From NCBI GenBank assembly GCA_016208495.1, contig JACQXX010000072.1, forward strand, positions 1-64,000: a stretch of 64,000 nucleotides of DNA, written 5' to 3'. This document shows, piece after piece, positions 1 to 58,440 of the stretch. The position numbers and the translations under genes are program-made. The notes beneath the pieces were generated by a model. It was not told the DNA's origin. It saw only the letters and a program-made list of their open reading frames with translations, and searched no databases. This DNA comes from Acidobacteriota bacterium (GTDB taxonomy: Bacteria > Acidobacteriota > Blastocatellia > Chloracidobacteriales > Chloracidobacteriaceae). Every line of letters starts with the position of its first letter. Position 1 is the stretch's first letter.

Positions 1-82
1 CTGACTACTGACTACTGACTACTGACTACTGACTACTGACTACTGACTACTGACTACTGACTACTGACTACTGACTACTGAC
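1..82. repeat. Tandem heptamer array CTGACTA x ~11 at window start; 3' part of the conserved upstream element family (see 9120-9253)
   Basis: Direct reading: perfect ctgacta tandem copies, then a unique 35-nt spacer to the ATG at 119. Confidence 0.9.
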
Positions 83-118
83 GAAGCAAAAACCAAGCAC
101 TCATAACCTCTAAACTCT

Positions 119-8496: not shown

Positions 8497-8520
8497 AGAA
8501 TGAAAAAAGTGGTTAGGGAG

Positions 8521-8728
8521 GGTTAAAAAACAACTTCCCGATTTTCATTTGGGTCGAAGCCATTTTCTTTTGAGTTCGGTGGTACTTTCCCTGACAAAAG
8601 CTCAGAACCCATTGAAGTCTTTGAATTTCTTTTTCGTGTATTTCGTGTATTTCGTGGTTTCCTGTTCTGAAATTGGATCTCTCCGGGTGACTTTCGATAA
8701 AAACGGGAAGTTGTATTTTTACAGTCCC
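8521..8728. repeat. Small element bounded by inverted copies of a ~28-nt motif (AAAAAACAACTTCCCGATTTTC ... GGGAAGTTGTATTTTTACAGTCCC), with internal TTCGTGTAT tandem copies
   Basis: The motif at 8528-8553 is the reverse complement of the motif at 8699-8728. A third copy follows the stop codon at 25856. Confidence 0.6.
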
Positions 8729-8795
8729 TTAGTGGTGCGAATGAAGGGTTGGCAACAAGGACAGTTTTGAATCCGCGAAGCGGGTGACATTCTTA

Positions 8796-8926
8796 AAGCC
8801 TCGGGTGGAATAAGCGTCAGCGAATGGAATCCGTGGCGTCTATTACCGGGCAACGTACACTGGGCCGGGGAGGCATTCATTATTGCTGATTCTGTTTTCC
8901 ACGGATTCCGCTACGCTCCACCCGAG
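8796..8926. other. Long imperfect hairpin / candidate structured RNA or MITE-like element
   Basis: aaagcctcgggtgga (8796-8810) is the exact reverse complement of tccacccgaggcttt (8912-8926). The inner arm gaatccgtgg/ccacggattc and gcgtcagcg/ccgctacgc extend the stem, enclosing a ~60-nt loop. Confidence 0.5.
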
Positions 8927-9119
8927 GCTTTCACTCTTTCGCCCAGTTCCTGGGCTGAGACCCAAAAACGGCTTCAACTCTTAACTGGCACCACTAACCA
9001 CTAACCACATTCTTCATTTTCTCTATACAAAATTGTATTACTGTGTTATTGTTTCGCGCGCTTAACCAGTAGCGCTCTCAACTGGTTCACATCCCAACAA
9101 TTTCATCGTTCCAGGCCGA

Positions 9120-9253
9120 ACTTTTGTTCTTGTAATACCATTTTGGAATGAAGCGGTCGTATTAGAAAACAGTCAAGTCATTCAATAAAATGAACTTAGT
9201 GAACTACTGACTACTGACTACTGACTACTGACTACAAACTGGTATAAGGAGAC
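9120..9253 (+). promoter_or_regulatory. Conserved gene-upstream element, copy A (ATACCATTTTGGAATGAAGCGGTCGTATTAGAAAACAGTCAAGTCATTCAA...GAACTA[CTGACTA]n CAAACTGGTATAAGGAG)
   Basis: The same 5' and 3' flanks, with a variable number of CTGACTA heptamers, recur at 23085-23200 and 56440-56560. Partial copies are at 1-82 and 47270-47300. All copies are oriented towards the downstream plus-strand gene. Confidence 0.5.
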
Positions 9254-9259
9254 GTGTCT

Positions 9260-9646
9260 ATGCCGCGAATTTGCCATTTTGAAATCCATGCCGAAAACCC
9301 CGAGCGAGCCATCACTTTTTACACCAGCGTGTTTGGCTGGAAATTCCAGCAGTGGGGAGACCAACCGTACTGGTTGATTGAAACCGGACCCAAAGGGCAA
9401 TCAGGCATTGATGGTGGATTACTGCCCCGCCACGGAGCGCCGCCGGTTGGCGGTGAGCCTGTGAATGCCTTTGTCTGCACGGTTGATGTTGATAACCTGG
9501 ATGCGTATAGTGCCAAAGTAACCGAACACGGTGCCACTCTGGCCGTCCCAAAAATGCCGATCCCGACGGTTGGCTGGCTGGCTTATTATAAAGACACCGA
9601 AGGCAATATTTTCGGGATGATGCAATCTGACCCCGAAGCCAAATAA
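9260..9646 (+). CDS. VOC-family protein (glyoxalase/bleomycin-resistance/dioxygenase fold)
   Basis: HFEIHAENPERAITFYTSVFGW...GNIFGMMQ is the typical VOC pattern. ATG 9260 is preceded by AAGGAG 7 nt upstream; the listed GTG at 9254 is a less likely start. Confidence 0.85.
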   Translation: MPRICHFEIHAENPERAITFYTSVFGWKFQQWGDQPYWLIETGPKGQSGIDGGLLPRHGAPPVGGEPVNAFVCTVDVDNLDAYSAKVTEHGATLAVPKMPIPTVGWLAYYKDTEGNIFGMMQSDPEAK

Positions 9647-23063: not shown

Positions 23064-23084
23064 ACGTGAGTCCTTCGAAGGTGT

Positions 23085-23200
23085 GAGTGGTATTACCATT
23101 GTGCAATGACGTGCTTGTATTAGAAAATAGTCAAGTGATTCAATCAAATGAACTGAGCGAACTACTGACTACTGACTGCTGACTACAAACTGGTATGATA
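23085..23200 (+). promoter_or_regulatory. Conserved gene-upstream element, copy B (ATTACCATTGTGCAATGACGTGCTTGTATTAGAAAATAGTCAAGTGATTCAA...[CTGACTA]3...CAAACTGGTATGAT)
   Basis: It aligns with copies A and C and has 3 heptamer copies, one of them CTGACTG. Confidence 0.5.
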
Positions 23201-23510
23201 AATTGAAGATACCACACGAGAGTCTTCCGCACTGCAATGTGTTGCCCATCAGATCGGTTGACCTGAAATTCAAAACTGTAAAAACCTACCATCAGAAAAA
23301 AAGCACTTCACTCCAGTCGAAAAGCCAGCATCGTTTTCAAGGTTTTGAAACTCTCAGTCTAAATCCACGTGAAAAATAATACTTCAGCACTTTAAGCCTG
23401 TCTGGTGTCTCCGCCTGAGTGTCATGCCTCGCGAAAGGCTCAAGTCTCACGCTTCCGTGAACCTTGGGAATGATCAACTGTCGGTGTTTTATCATTCAAA
23501 GGGCCGATGT

Positions 23511-26244: not shown

Positions 26245-26405
26245 TGAGCGTGTTTGAGACAAGGAGACAAGGGGACAAAGGGACAAAGGGACAAAGGGAC
26301 AAGAAAAAACGGATGATCCCATTTCCCGCCCCCCAGCCGGGAGTCATTCCAGTTTGTAGCCGTTGATTTGATGTCTCCCTGTCTCCCTGTCTCCTTGTCT
26401 GGATC
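26245..26405. repeat. Inverted arrays of GACAAGGGGA/GGACAAAGGG with complementary TCTCCCTGTC copies
   Basis: Direct reading. The same unit family recurs at 41440-41460, 58290-58430 and 60430-60460. Confidence 0.85.
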
Positions 26406-27989: not shown

Positions 27990-28385
27990 GAAGCGAAGTA
28001 GCGAAAAAGAAGCGAGTGGTGAGTAGCGAGTAGCGAGTAGTCAACCGTTGGGTACTTCAAATGGTTTGTTGTTTTGGTGAGCAGGAAGACCCAAATTGAA
28101 TAATTCAGATTTTAGGGAGTCGGATGGAAATATCATACCACCAGGGTTCAGGGTTCAGGGTTCAGGGTTCAGGGTTCAGGGCCAGATACTCCACGTTGAG
28201 CGGTACCCGCCAGTTCCCCCGTCTTCATCTTGAGTGGGATCAGTCAACTCATCGCCGAAACCCTGAACCCTGACCCCTAACCCCGCTGAACCCTGAACCC
28301 TGAACCCGATTTCAGTGGGATTTTATTTTCTTCTGGGTCCCTTACTACTCGCTACTCACTACTCACTACTCACTAGCCTTATTTG
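27990..28385. repeat. Large nested inverted-repeat region built from tandem units: (AGTAGCGAGT)n ... (GGGTTCA)5 ... centre ... (GAACCCT)n ... (ACTACTCGCT/ACTCACTACT)n
   Basis: Direct reading. The outer decamer arrays (28008-28040 and 28340-28380) and the inner heptamer arrays (28143-28180 and 28261-28300) are mutually reverse-complementary. Confidence 0.85.
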
Positions 28386-31931: not shown

Positions 31932-32870
31932 GTGGCTAAAAAGACAGTTAAGAAAATTGGCGTCCTGGTCGGGCGCGAACGTTCATTTCCAGACGCATTT
32001 ATTGCTGAAGTCAACTCCCGCAATGCTGGTGTGGTGGCTGAATATTGTTCCCTGGGCGGAACGATTGCCTCAAACACCAGTGAATATGCGGTGATTGTGG
32101 ACCGAATTTCCCATGAAGTCCCCTATTATCAAACATTTCTCAAACATGAAGCCCTCAATGGCTGCCATGTGATCAACAATCCATTTTGGAAACTGGCCGA
32201 CGATAAATTTTTCGGGACCGCCATGGCCGAAAAAATTGGCGTTGCCATTCCCAAAACCGTTGCGTTGCCATCCCAGTCCTATATTGACGACATCACGGCT
32301 GAAAGTCTGTCCAACCTCAAGTTCCCAATTGACTGGCAGGCGATTGTTGATTACACGGGCTTTCCGGCCTACATGAAGCCGCACTGGGGCGGTGGCTGGA
32401 AGCACATTTACAAAGTGAACTCACTGCCGGAATTGTGGAAAGCCTATAATCAGACCGGTACGCTGTGCATGATCCTGCAGGAATCAATTGAATGGGATCA
32501 ATATGTGCGCTGCATCTGCATCGGCAAAAAACATGTGTTGATCACCAACTGGGATCCACGCAAGCCGCACCACCTCCGCTATGACGCCAGCACACCGCTT
32601 CCGCTTGAGTCAGCGCTTGAAAAACGCGTCGTGGCCGATGTGATCAAACTGTGCGAAGCCCTTGGCTATGATATGAACACGGTTGAATTTGCAGTCCGTG
32701 ACGGCATCCCGTATGCCATTGACTTTATGAACACGGCGCCCGACTTTGCCCTCGAATCCATCGGTGAAACCTATTTCAAATGGGTGATTGACACGATGGC
32801 CGACTACACTATCGAATGTGCCAAAAAAGGCACGAAGAAGCCGACGTATCGCTGGGACGCACTTTTGTAA
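31932..32870 (+). CDS. ATP-grasp fold carboxylate-amine ligase (GshB/RimK-like), specificity unknown
   Basis: It has a pre-ATP-grasp N-domain, a central KPHWGGGWKHIYKV nucleotide-binding region and a C-terminal AIDFMNTAPDF metal-binding segment. The start is GTG, with GGAG 9 nt upstream. Confidence 0.6.
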   Translation: MAKKTVKKIGVLVGRERSFPDAFIAEVNSRNAGVVAEYCSLGGTIASNTSEYAVIVDRISHEVPYYQTFLKHEALNGCHVINNPFWKLADDKFFGTAMAEKIGVAIPKTVALPSQSYIDDITAESLSNLKFPIDWQAIVDYTGFPAYMKPHWGGGWKHIYKVNSLPELWKAYNQTGTLCMILQESIEWDQYVRCICIGKKHVLITNWDPRKPHHLRYDASTPLPLESALEKRVVADVIKLCEALGYDMNTVEFAVRDGIPYAIDFMNTAPDFALESIGETYFKWVIDTMADYTIECAKKGTKKPTYRWDALL

Positions 32871-32965
32871 AATGAAGAATGAAGAATGAAGAATGAAGAA
32901 AATAAGAAGTTGAATTTTTTTCTTCATTCTCAATTCTTCATTCTCAATTCTTCACTTTGAGTTCT
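32871..32965. repeat. Inverted tandem arrays (GAAGAATGAA)n ... (TTCATTCTCAATTCTTCA)n
   Basis: Direct reading. Confidence 0.85.
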
Positions 32966-32987
32966 TCATTCTTCATTCAAAAAAACT

Positions 32988-36944: not shown

Positions 36945-37075
36945 AAAAAATAGGGCTGAAAAAACCAGGGCTGAAGAAGTTGGACTGAAGACATTGGGCC
37001 AGGGGGCTGAGGGCTGAAGATAAGGGCTGAAGACGTCAGGCTGAAGAAAACGGGTGAAATCAATCCTAACACTAC
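36945..37075. repeat. Tandem GGCTGAAGA-type nonamer array (inverted partner copies at 37318-37360)
   Basis: Direct reading. The arrays flank the multi-hairpin element at 37090-37315. Confidence 0.85.
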
Positions 37076-37089
37076 AACGAGGTTTTAAT

Positions 37090-37315
37090 AAAAAACCGGG
37101 TCTTAAGCCCAGGAACTGGGTGGCAGGCATGTAGCCCAGAGTGCAACCCTGGGACCAACGGCCTGCTCTCCCTCCCCGCCGGCAACCGCCTACGGCGGTT
37201 GCCGGCGGGGAGGGAGAAATTGGGGATGACCGTCAACCCAGGGTTTCGAAGACTCCACCCTGGGCTACATGCCATCACCCGCTTCGCAGGTTAAAACCGA
37301 AACCTCGTTGTAGTA
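37090..37315. repeat. Palindromic multi-hairpin element (MITE-like). Outer arms GGCATGTAGCCCAG...CCCTGGG / CCCAGGG...CTGGGCTACATGCC, with a 23-bp perfect central hairpin CTCCCTCCCCGCCGGCAACCGCC-TAC-GGCGGTTGCCGGCGGGGAGGGAG
   Basis: Direct reading. It is related to the elements at 47040-47250 and 8941-8957 (shared CGCCCAGTTCCTGGGCT and CCCAGGGTT..CCCTGGGCTAC.TGCC blocks). Confidence 0.7.
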
Positions 37316-37374
37316 CTAAGCCCGATGTCTTCAGTCCCAAGCCCTGAGCCCTGGTTTTTTCAGCCCGTTAGTCT

Positions 37375-41408: not shown

Positions 41409-41513
41409 GGGGTTGGGGCAGTAAAAAAAGACAAAAGGACGCAAGGGACAAAAAGGACATAAATTCAAAACCCTGAACCCTGAACCCTGAACCCTGATTT
41501 CAGGAGATTTCCT

Positions 41514-45289: not shown

Positions 45290-45470
45290 AGAAATAAACT
45301 GGTGCTTGGTTCTTAGTGCCTGGTTTCGAAAACCCGGAACCCGGAACCCGGAACCCGGAACCCGGAACCCGGAACCCGGAACCCGGAACCCGGAACCCGG
45401 AACCCGGAACCCGGAACCCGGAACCCGGAACCCGGTGTATTCTTCATTCTTCATTCCCACACCGTCCGTT
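45226..45470. repeat. Nested inverted repeat: (GAAGAATGAA/GAATTGAGAAT)n ... (GGAACCCG)x14 ... TTCATTCTTCATTC
   Basis: Direct reading. The octamer array spans 45322-45435. Confidence 0.9.
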
Positions 45471-46989: not shown

Positions 46990-47300
46990 CAGTAGTCAGT
47001 AGTCAGTAATGCCCGTTAAGAGTTGAAGTGGTTTTTAGTTCTCATCCCGCAGGGATGGAGCAAAGTTAGCCGGTGGTCAGCGTCGCTTTGGACGCGCCAC
47101 CACCGGATGCGAGTCAGTTCCAGATTTTCCCCACCCGGCCAGCCGCCGCCGTAGGCGGCGGCTAGCCGGGTGGGGGTGAGAAGGCAATCTTTCCCAGGGT
47201 TAAAACCCTGGGCTACCTGCCTTCCGCCCAGTTCCTGGGCTCAAATCCGCTCTTTTTTCAACTCTTAATTCAGATTACTGACTACTGCCTACAAATTGGC
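46990..47300. repeat. Multi-hairpin element (at least 5 consecutive stem-loops) ending in a partial copy of the CTGACTA upstream element
   Basis: The hairpins are CTCATCCC-GCAG-GGATGGAG; CCGGTGGT...ACCACCGG; CCACCCGGCCAGCCGCCGCCGTAGGCGGCGGCTAGCCGGGTGGG; CCCAGGGTTAAAACCCTGGG; GCCCAGTTCCTGGGC. It is followed by ATTACTGACTACTGCCTACAAATTGGCATGAA. Confidence 0.7.
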
Positions 47301-48009: not shown

Positions 48010-48104
48010 GAATAGGGTTCAGGGTTCAGGGTTCAGGGGGCAAAAAGGTTCATTGTACTTCTGTCGGTCTTTTTGCCCCTTTTGTCTTTTAGAGGAAAAT
48101 CATC

Positions 48105-52017: not shown

Positions 52018-52245
52018 AAGGGTTTCGGGTTTCGGGTTTCGGGTTTTCGAAGAGGGCGCGGTTCAAAGCAACAGCGCCCTTACTTTTTGTCACCTTGTCA
52101 CCTTGTCATTCTGTCACCTTGTCATATTCATATCCTTCAAAGAAATTGGACAGCGACAGATGATTTTCCTCTGTCGCTTTTTTGTCGTCAGGGTACACAA
52201 TGAACCCTGAACCCTGAACCCTGAACCCCGAACCCTAACTGCTTT
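52018..52245. repeat. Arrays (GGGTTTC)x4 ... (GTCACCTT)x4 ... unique ... (GAACCCT)x5
   Basis: Direct reading. Confidence 0.85.
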
Positions 52246-56439: not shown

Positions 56440-56560
56440 AGCGGTCATATTAGAAAATAGTCAAGTTATTGAACCCAGTGAAGGTAGTGAACCATTGACC
56501 ACTGACCACTGACCACTGACTACTGACTACTGACTACTGACTACAAGCTGGCATAACAGA
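56440..56560 (+). promoter_or_regulatory. Conserved gene-upstream element, copy C (AAAGCGGTCATATTAGAAAATAGTCAAGTTATTGAA...(CTGACCA)x3(CTGACTA)x4 CAAGCTGGCATAAC)
   Basis: It aligns with copies A and B. The heptamer array here is 7 units, including CTGACCA variants. Confidence 0.5.
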
Positions 56561-58269: not shown

Positions 58270-58440
58270 ATAAGAAAACAAAGTCCGATCTGGACAAGGG
58301 GACAAGGAGACAAGGAGACACGGAGACACAATGGATCGCTTCATTTCCCCGCACCCAATCGGAACTCATTCACATTTACAAACTCCGTGGAATTGTCTCC
58401 GTGTCTCCGTGTCTCCCCTTCTCCTTGTCTCAAACACACT
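58270..58440. repeat. Inverted arrays (GACAAGGGGA/GACAAGGAGA/GACACGGAGA) ... (TCTCCGTGTC/TCTCCTTGTC)
   Basis: Direct reading. Confidence 0.85.

Follow-up and report, generated by a model that had tools for sequence, protein, structure and literature searches.

What kind of sequence is a repeat of about 110 bases that carries an array of CTGACTA heptamers and precedes genes as different as those for a VOC/glyoxalase protein, a VIT-vWA protein and a 543-aa protein without a Pfam match? These three genes lie downstream of copies 1 to 3 of the repeat in the window, the whole 64-kb stretch of DNA analysed here, which has a G+C content of about 52% and also encodes an E1-beta subunit and an ABC ATPase. 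An exact-protein look-up of the 543-aa protein returned no match. An earlier note had suggested a mobile promoter cassette or an array of regulator-binding sites. Our analysis indicates instead that the repeat is very probably a miniature non-coding transposon (MITE) of an uncultured acidobacterium equipped with a slippage-prone CTGACTA repeat, and not a dedicated promoter cassette.

Two copies in the window are full length (9136–9244 and 23094–23195), and a third is 5′-truncated (56445–56553). The three plus-strand repeats reported previously are real and sit where they had been placed, and every copy in the window indeed lies upstream of a plus-strand gene. For a 19-nt core, TATTAGAAAANAGTCAAGT, the window has three occurrences where shuffled sequences predict 0.06, and double heptamers with no more than two mismatches occur 29 times compared with an expectation of 0.10. 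Tandem Repeats Finder assigns 4.7, 3.7 and 7.0 units to copies 1 to 3, respectively, and 11.7 units to an array at the window start. Of the at least three full and two partial copies given before, three hold, but copy 3 is truncated, and the stretches at 1–82 and 47270–47300 cannot be demonstrated to be copies.

Copy 1 (9136–9244, plus strand) is a full-length element of 109 bp, as delimited by in silico excision and by its identity outside the array to a copy at another locus, L046 (L-numbers designate collected loci). It opens with the 5′ terminal repeat TACCATTTTGG (9136–9146), carries a tract of four CTGACTA units (9207–9234) and closes with the 3′ terminal repeat ACAAACTGGTA (9234–9244), and it is bordered by a left (9133–9135) and a right (9245–9247) target-site duplication, both reading TAA. 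Copy 2 (23094–23195, plus strand) is full length at 102 bp, with the tract CTGACTA CTGACTG CTGACTA at 23165–23185. Its flanking trinucleotides, TAT and TGA, no longer match, and it resides between divergent genes, a minus-strand gene that starts at 23066 and the VIT-vWA gene that starts at 23424.

The element as a whole is non-coding and about 102–109 bp long; intact copies span 88–109 bp (91–112 bp when the 3-nt left duplication is counted) and contain no ORFs. MITEs range from about 50 to 1000 bp and lack coding capacity. The ends are short terminal inverted repeats of about 10 bp, TACCAtTTTG and CAAAcTGGTA, generalized as 5′ TACCAnTTTG ... CAAAnTGGTA 3′. Specifically, the element start TACCATTTTG and the element end CAAACTGGTA form inverted repeats, wherein TACCATTTTG agrees at 9 of 10 positions with the reverse complement of the 3′ end, TACCAGTTTG, and this complementarity is kept in most copies. 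In L001, a matching change is present at both terminal repeats (TGCCA / TGGCA-type). Neither these inverted repeats nor the TAA/TAA duplication had been described in the earlier note.

The locus of copy 1 reads as a classical pair of filled and empty sites with a 3-bp duplication. Contigs that encode VOC relatives at 93% and 92% identity and lack the element read ...ccaggccgaacttttgttcttgTAAggagacgtgtctATG (also given as ...cttgTAAggagacgtgtctATG and ...gaacttttgttcttgTAAggagacgtgtctATG), whereas the window reads ...ttcttgTAA[109 bp]TAAggagacgtgtctATG, such that TAA, the 109 bp and a second TAA stand exactly at the single TAA of these relatives (L050–L057). In silico deletion of 9136–9247 restores the relatives' sequence around the junction, leaving 2–4 substitutions over about 105 nt and one 1-nt indel further upstream. 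The right TAA preserves the AAGGAG ribosome-binding site of the VOC gene.

Direct target duplications match in 8 of the 12 copies that carry T-N-A at both ends, reading TAA/TAA in four (window copy 1, L011, L024 and L001), TTA/TTA in three (L038, L028 and L046) and TCA/TCA in one (L041). The TAA/TTA pattern, which would be expected if these bases belonged to the inverted repeat, is present in only 2 copies. The middle bases are mismatched in 4 of the 12, and several other copies have degenerate ends; copies with flanks of these kinds could be old.

Copy 3 (56445–56553, plus strand) had been taken for a full copy, but its first roughly 21 nt, including the 5′ terminal repeat, are missing, and the 5′ block that had been aligned there (GACCGAAGAAAGCGG) is host sequence, which a relative lacking the element has as well. 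What is left carries seven heptamers (TTGACCA, two CTGACCA and four CTGACTA; 56496–56544) and is followed by TAA at 56554–56556. The copy lies between a pentapeptide-repeat gene and the gene for the 543-aa protein, where two relatives (L069, 91% protein identity, and L070, 80%) have unrelated spacer DNA and no element. Its junction falls at AGCGG, a string common to the relative's host spacer and to intact elements, which suggests that the 5′ part was lost by a later deletion through this microhomology. The empty sites recovered are one clean case, at the VOC locus, and one untidy case, at the locus of copy 3.

At least 20 further copies reside in two related MAGs and in metagenome contigs. 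An exact-pattern scan for the core, with one genome per species, yielded 39 loci; 12 of these, from two MAGs, contain the whole element, and the remaining loci are chance matches. One of the two carriers is 'Acidobacteriota bacterium AMR_MDS_0507', and the other bears the label 'uncultured Clostridia'; a metagenome scan added six more copies. A profile search with nhmmer over the window, the two MAGs and the metagenome contigs gave 23 matches, comprising 21 copies and two diverged ones (L006 7471–7533 and L047 371–438) that differ in the core. Because the string TATTAGAAAAnAGTCAAGT served as the search pattern, the invariance of this core among the copies collected is an ascertainment artefact. 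Loci of the closest relatives, 66 kb in total, yielded no element.

Several of these copies appear to have moved recently. Two copies from one MAG, L011 and L038, are identical at 102 of 102 positions, although they occupy different loci and have a TAA and a TTA duplication, respectively. Likewise, window copy 1 and L046 are 100% identical outside the array, reside at different loci and differ in heptamer number (4 versus 2) and in duplication (TAA versus TTA). Identical copies at different loci with different duplications indicate a recently active element, and together with the empty site and the target-site duplications they bear out the proposal that the repeat is mobile.

Two side observations concern the collected loci themselves. 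The second carrier, 'uncultured Clostridia bacterium SRP287051_co1_196', shares the element and is 94.5% identical over 3.2 kb to an Acidobacteriota MAG (L006 1141–4360 aligned with L016 28–3234), and its taxonomic label is probably wrong. In L038 (reverse strand, element at 1113–1009), a 1404-aa gene stays open for about 32 nt beyond the element border before its frame stops, and its own C-terminus and stop codon may have been replaced through this insertion.

Small size without coding capacity, terminal inverted repeats, a target duplication of fixed length, an empty site and dispersed copies, some of them identical, together make the element very probably a MITE. Its movement would depend on a transposase encoded elsewhere, which would cut and paste the element into TNA trinucleotides that become duplicated on both sides. 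The targets are rich in AT and lie at the borders of genes, among them stop codons and the spacer ahead of ribosome-binding sites, which leaves copies near gene starts or gene ends in either orientation.

A 3-bp TNA target duplication marks the IS1031/IS427-type subgroups of the IS5 family, and the element displays a duplication of this kind. By this analogy, the duplication suggests that the mobilizing enzyme may be IS5-family-like. A literature search returned no citable statement of a TNA duplication for IS5 subgroups, and the IS5-type ends given in PMC4596501 (GAGACC... and ACGTCA...) do not resemble the TACCA... ends of the element. No autonomous insertion sequence with matching ends was found, no solitary ends occur in the window or in the collected loci, and searches of viral contigs and plasmids gave no matches. 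One candidate composite transposon, formed in L047 by two inverted copies around a 362-aa gene, was rejected, as the encoded protein has neither a Pfam match nor a transposase signature.

Near its 3′ end the element carries a heptamer tract of three CTGACTA-like units. Across all copies the (CTGACTA)n tract comprises 1–7 units. Most copies are 105 nt long (including the 3-nt left duplication) and have three units with an imperfect middle one (CTGGCTA, CGGACTA, CGGGCTA, CGATCTA or CTGACTG), and this is the ancestral form of the tract. Copies with identical units have one (L024), two, three, four, five or up to seven (window copy 3). In a single orthologous pair, L006 and L016, which are 94.5% identical over 3.2 kb, the elements measure 112 and 105 nt and are exactly one unit apart. 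The suggestion that the repeat number is free to vary therefore proved sound, both among copies and for this pair. The distribution indicates that the tract behaves as an ordinary microsatellite, with interrupted arrays being stable and pure arrays slipping; replication slippage between identical units would account for the gain and loss that leads to the observed variation. Short-read contigs of the window's own organism break inside the tract, and look-ups of its VOC and E1-beta proteins returned only short contigs starting inside a heptamer tract.

Is the element nevertheless maintained for a promoter? According to the cassette proposal, an outward sigma-70 promoter is the reason for the element, with the last-but-one heptamer supplying a −35 hexamer (CTGACT) and the 3′ end an extended −10 (TGGTATAAn), and the repeat number tunes or switches expression. 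Such a promoter element would have its −35 and −10 hexamers 16–18 bp apart and conserved within the element. The strings required are present. The 3′ end joined to the duplicated target gives TGnTATAAn with CTGACT 16 nt upstream, and the end of copy 1 with its right TAA reads TGGTATAAG, an extended −10-like string. In a simple sigma-70 scan only copy 2 passes among the window copies (CTGACT-16-TATGAT with TG), and copies 1 and 3 fail. The last −10 positions derive from the target and the flank and are different at every site, as is true for part of the −10 of copy 2. About 10 copies do lie 5–230 nt upstream of a co-oriented gene, and in L024 the −10-like hexamer is 5 nt before the ATG of a DnaE-like gene. 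In the VOC relatives, which lack the element, ribosome-binding site and start codon are the same as in the window.

To assess orientation, genes around the copies were called with a codon log-odds model trained on the window. Of about 17 independent copies, roughly 10 are directed into the start of a gene, whereas another seven or eight point at the 3′ end of a convergent gene. The claim that every copy points into the 5′ end of a gene fails outside the window, where at least six copies face the stop codon of a convergent gene confirmed by a Pfam domain (alpha-2-macroglobulin MG10, FGE-sulfatase, N6 DNA methylase, UPF0158, ATP-grasp and DUF1648). In L021 and L047, the duplicated trinucleotide itself is the stop codon of the convergent gene. 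A tally of roughly 10 versus 7 amounts to no orientation bias, the result that had been named beforehand as speaking against a promoter role.

Between the end of the tract and the −10-like hexamer there are 8 nt, and the −35/−10 spacing is 16 nt at any unit number; because the candidate −35 sits inside the repeat, the number of units cannot alter the −35/−10 spacing. A phase switch based on spacing is therefore not possible, since the tract supplies the −35 candidate itself, and the tract lies in no reading frame. A sigma-54 promoter (TGGCAC-N5-TTGC, from CTGGTAT/CTGGCAC) was dismissed on inspection, as there is no conserved GC at the right spacing and the downstream bases belong to the flank. 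An obligate promoter was rejected on copy orientation and on the promoter scans, and we consider the cassette reading as a whole unlikely.

Promoters carried by MITEs are real in other systems, among them Correia elements. The BrickBuilt element is another example (PMC4596501). By analogy with both, individual insertions of the acidobacterial MITE may create weak promoters: where the 3′ end and the duplicated target read TGGTATAAn, some insertions may make a weak outward promoter. Such a promoter would be a by-product of insertion, not the purpose of the element.

The region upstream of the VOC gene has further features of its own. Between 9015 and 9132, ahead of the insertion site, two palindromes are kept in relatives, TATACAAAnTTGTATTA and AACCAGTAGCGyTCTCAACTGGTT, and these could be the native operator/promoter of the VOC gene, now displaced by 112 bp as a result of the insertion. 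Further upstream, about 470 bp (8500–8990) have no counterpart in the orthologous spacer of L057, where other short arrays take their place. This segment contains inverted repeats (pairs I10 and I12) and may be another insertion.

The pairing ends of the element also raise the prospect of a structured cis-regulatory RNA or a small RNA, in which the terminal complementarity would form a closing stem. Copy 1 folds somewhat more stably than shuffled sequences (z = −2.2 and −3.1 on the two strands), but the z-scores of other copies are −1.0 and −0.03, and the variable base of AAGTnATTC does not covary with its predicted partner, as judged by eye. A search of the whole window against Rfam at the gathering score found only a tRNA elsewhere, and at E ≤ 1 the region 9080–9300 gave only a chance 15-bit match. 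The element is also present in both orientations relative to neighbouring genes, and it is a clean insertion with a target duplication. We rejected a structured RNA on the basis of the Rfam results, the weak and inconsistent z-scores (−0.03 to −3.1) and the lack of covariation by eye, and we hold this reading to be extremely improbable.

The MITE reading leaves the two proposed partial copies to be explained. The stretch at 1–82 (plus strand) is a stand-alone (CTGACTA)11.7 array that is cut by the window start, and 36 nt separate it from the E1-beta start codon downstream. It lacks both blocks of the element and is orthologous to a stand-alone (CTGACGA)n array in relatives. Judged by these alignments, it is a related unit, not a demonstrable copy of the element. 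Specifically, relatives with a 97% identical E1-beta have (CTGACGA)4–5 at the orthologous site, again with neither block, and share with the window the flank AAGCAAAAACCAxGCACTCATAACC downstream of the array. Other strains that encode an identical E1-beta protein have (AAGCACS)n at this site, and a Blastocatellia MAG with an E1-beta of 86% identity has (AACCCTG)4. No element was found in an nhmmer search of the loci of the E1-beta relatives. When the upstream arrays are compared (window 1–118, L058 2284–2500, L065 1–95 and L068 2371–2500), they turn over far faster than the flanking genes.

The stretch at 47270–47300 is part of the right arm of an inverted repeat, although its tail, CTACAAATTGGCAT, does resemble the 3′ end of the element. 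The left arm (46992–47027, minus strand) starts 17 nt after the stop codon of an HlyD-like gene and comprises (TAGTCAG)3.6 followed by TTAAGAGTTGAA; the right arm (47257–47300, plus strand) comprises TTCAACTCTTAA, then CTGACTACTGCCTA and then CAAATTGGCAT, and only its last roughly 27 nt resemble the 3′ end of the MITE. The two arms form pair I6, which is 36 nt long and 83% complementary with 229 nt between the arms, and the array itself occupies 47278–47291. Both arms adjoin TTCAACTCTTAA, a different dispersed motif that recurs at 8973 beside (CCACTAA)n.

This motif belongs to a second dispersed repeat, seen at 8941–9008 (plus), 47226–47291 (plus) and 47027–46986 (minus), which runs from a hairpin, GCCCAGTTCCTGGGC, through about 15 nt, TTCAACTCTTAA and about 5–9 nt to an array of heptamers, CCACTAA or CTGACTA depending on the copy. 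In L058 and L014, arrays are preceded by a comparable motif, AACTCTCAATTCCyAACAC.

Both stretches belong to a genome-wide class of intergenic arrays of 7–8-nt units, often in inverted pairs and polar relative to genes. The window contains 46 arrays with units of 7 or 8 nt, of which 42 fall between genes and 4 at the edges of called ORFs. Such arrays occupy at least 25 of the roughly 45 intergenic gaps, and at least 8 gaps are bracketed by inverted complementary array pairs, nested in the case of 28008–28374. Within 40 nt of gene ends the arrays are polar on the coding strand: 8 of the 10 that follow a stop codon are G-rich (for example, at 48014, 52020 and 53573), and 10 of the 11 that precede a start codon are C-rich (for example, at 41469, 50616, 52201, 12833 and 43441). 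Arrays at orthologous sites differ between close relatives. We regard these polar, paired arrays as a more unusual observation than the MITE itself.

Further details of the arrays are as follows. The units in the window include AACCCTG, AGGGTTC, AATGAAG and TGACAGGG as well as AACCCGG, which forms the longest pure array, (AACCCGG)15 at 45331–45435, flanked by complementary (GAAGAAT)n and (ATTCTTC)n. Gaps that exemplify the pattern are 28008–28374, 32866–32985, 58293–58429, 26257–26400, 36953–37366 and 52020–52238. Pre-start arrays often leave only 2–12 nt to the start codon, with no Shine-Dalgarno sequence, and inverted array pairs in RNA would form long stems that loop out the spacer.

These arrays bear on the idea that the heptamers constitute a binding-site array for a DNA- or RNA-binding regulator, with the transposon merely serving as the vehicle that spreads the sites, for which the TTTTGAT heptads of the cholera toxin promoter offer a comparison. 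Immediately ahead of the start codons of E1-beta and the ABC ATPase there are CTGACTA-type arrays that are not part of the element, and the polarity of the window arrays parallels the TAACTGA repeats upstream of Beggiatoaceae start codons (MacGregor 2015, PMC4679880). However, at one orthologous site the unit differs wholly between strains with identical E1-beta (CTGACGA versus AAGCACS), a complete change that a sequence-specific binder would not tolerate. Many unrelated units are used in the window, and no candidate binding protein was identified. We judge a regulator-binding array to be very unlikely.

A different role for the tract can be imagined, wherein it is not passive cargo. The lineage would possess a genome-wide system of G-rich post-stop and C-rich pre-start arrays, often as stem-forming pairs, and the MITE would deliver a ready-made pre-start CTGACTA array to new genes. 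We regard this as quite improbable; if true, the array system could act in mRNA processing, in Shine-Dalgarno-independent translation initiation or in termination. Our literature search found no report of such repeats for Acidobacteria (Blastocatellia-like lineage).

The MITE family is new, as had been supposed, but its kind, a MITE with an internal tandem repeat, is already well known. Correia elements (CREE/NEMIS) of Neisseria are MITEs of about 100–150 bp, often next to genes, in which a short AT target duplication joins an outward −10-like hexamer at the element end. The acidobacterial element resembles them in size, in the entry of the duplicated target into a −10-like hexamer and in its location adjacent to genes, but Correia elements differ by their 26-bp terminal repeats, TA duplication, IHF site, experimentally shown promoters and lack of an internal microsatellite. 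BOX elements of Streptococcus pneumoniae are dispersed intergenic sequences of the form boxA-(boxB)n-boxC. They are similar in having partly complementary, conserved 5′ and 3′ modules around variable tandem units, although boxB is 45 nt long compared with the 7-nt unit here, BOX elements belong to Firmicutes and they are not known to have a regular target duplication.

The closest described analogue in architecture is BrickBuilt, an intergenic, multi-copy, non-coding MITE of Porphyromonas gingivalis that is built from a leader, direct repeats in tandem and a tail, has small inverted repeats at its ends and promoter-like segments, and whose repeat number varies between copies and strains (Klein et al. 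2015, PMC4596501). There is no common sequence. BrickBuilt has a 23-nt unit in up to about 23 copies and reaches about 1 kb, compared with a 7-nt unit in 1–7 copies and about 105 bp here; its ends match IS5-family ISPg elements (GAGACC...), whereas we know of no partner insertion sequence for the TACCA... ends; and its target duplications are irregular, whereas those described here are regular TNA trinucleotides.

The heptamer arrays, as distinct from the whole element, have parallels of their own. Other heptanucleotide-type repeats include the STRR of cyanobacteria, and long SSRs were reportedly described by Mrazek and colleagues in 2007; the window arrays are alike in consisting of tandem 7-nt units in intergenic positions at many loci. 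The TAACTGA repeats of Beggiatoaceae are tandem 7-nt repeats that lie between genes, in many cases only a few nucleotides ahead of the start codon, and canonical ribosome-binding sites are scarce in their vicinity (MacGregor 2015, PMC4679880). None of these three array types is known as transposon cargo, whereas here many units coexist, often as inverted pairs, and one unit type resides inside a MITE. Putative mobile promoters, the concept behind the cassette proposal, are near-identical upstream sequences that precede unrelated genes (Matus-Garcia et al. 2012, PMC3488235). The element described here differs from these as it is a transposon with ends and a target duplication, and it has no orientation preference towards genes.

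These findings cleanly document a MITE with recent activity in a Blastocatellia-like lineage that is uncultured, and annotations should mask the element as a transposon instead of treating it as a regulatory motif. It explains breaks upstream of genes in short-read assemblies of these acidobacteria, and its internal microsatellite, which can change faster than the element gains point mutations, is a potential strain marker. As insertions lie within 0–30 nt of start or stop codons, individual copies may alter the expression of neighbouring genes. The polar, paired heptamer arrays of this genome are the part that could lead somewhere new.
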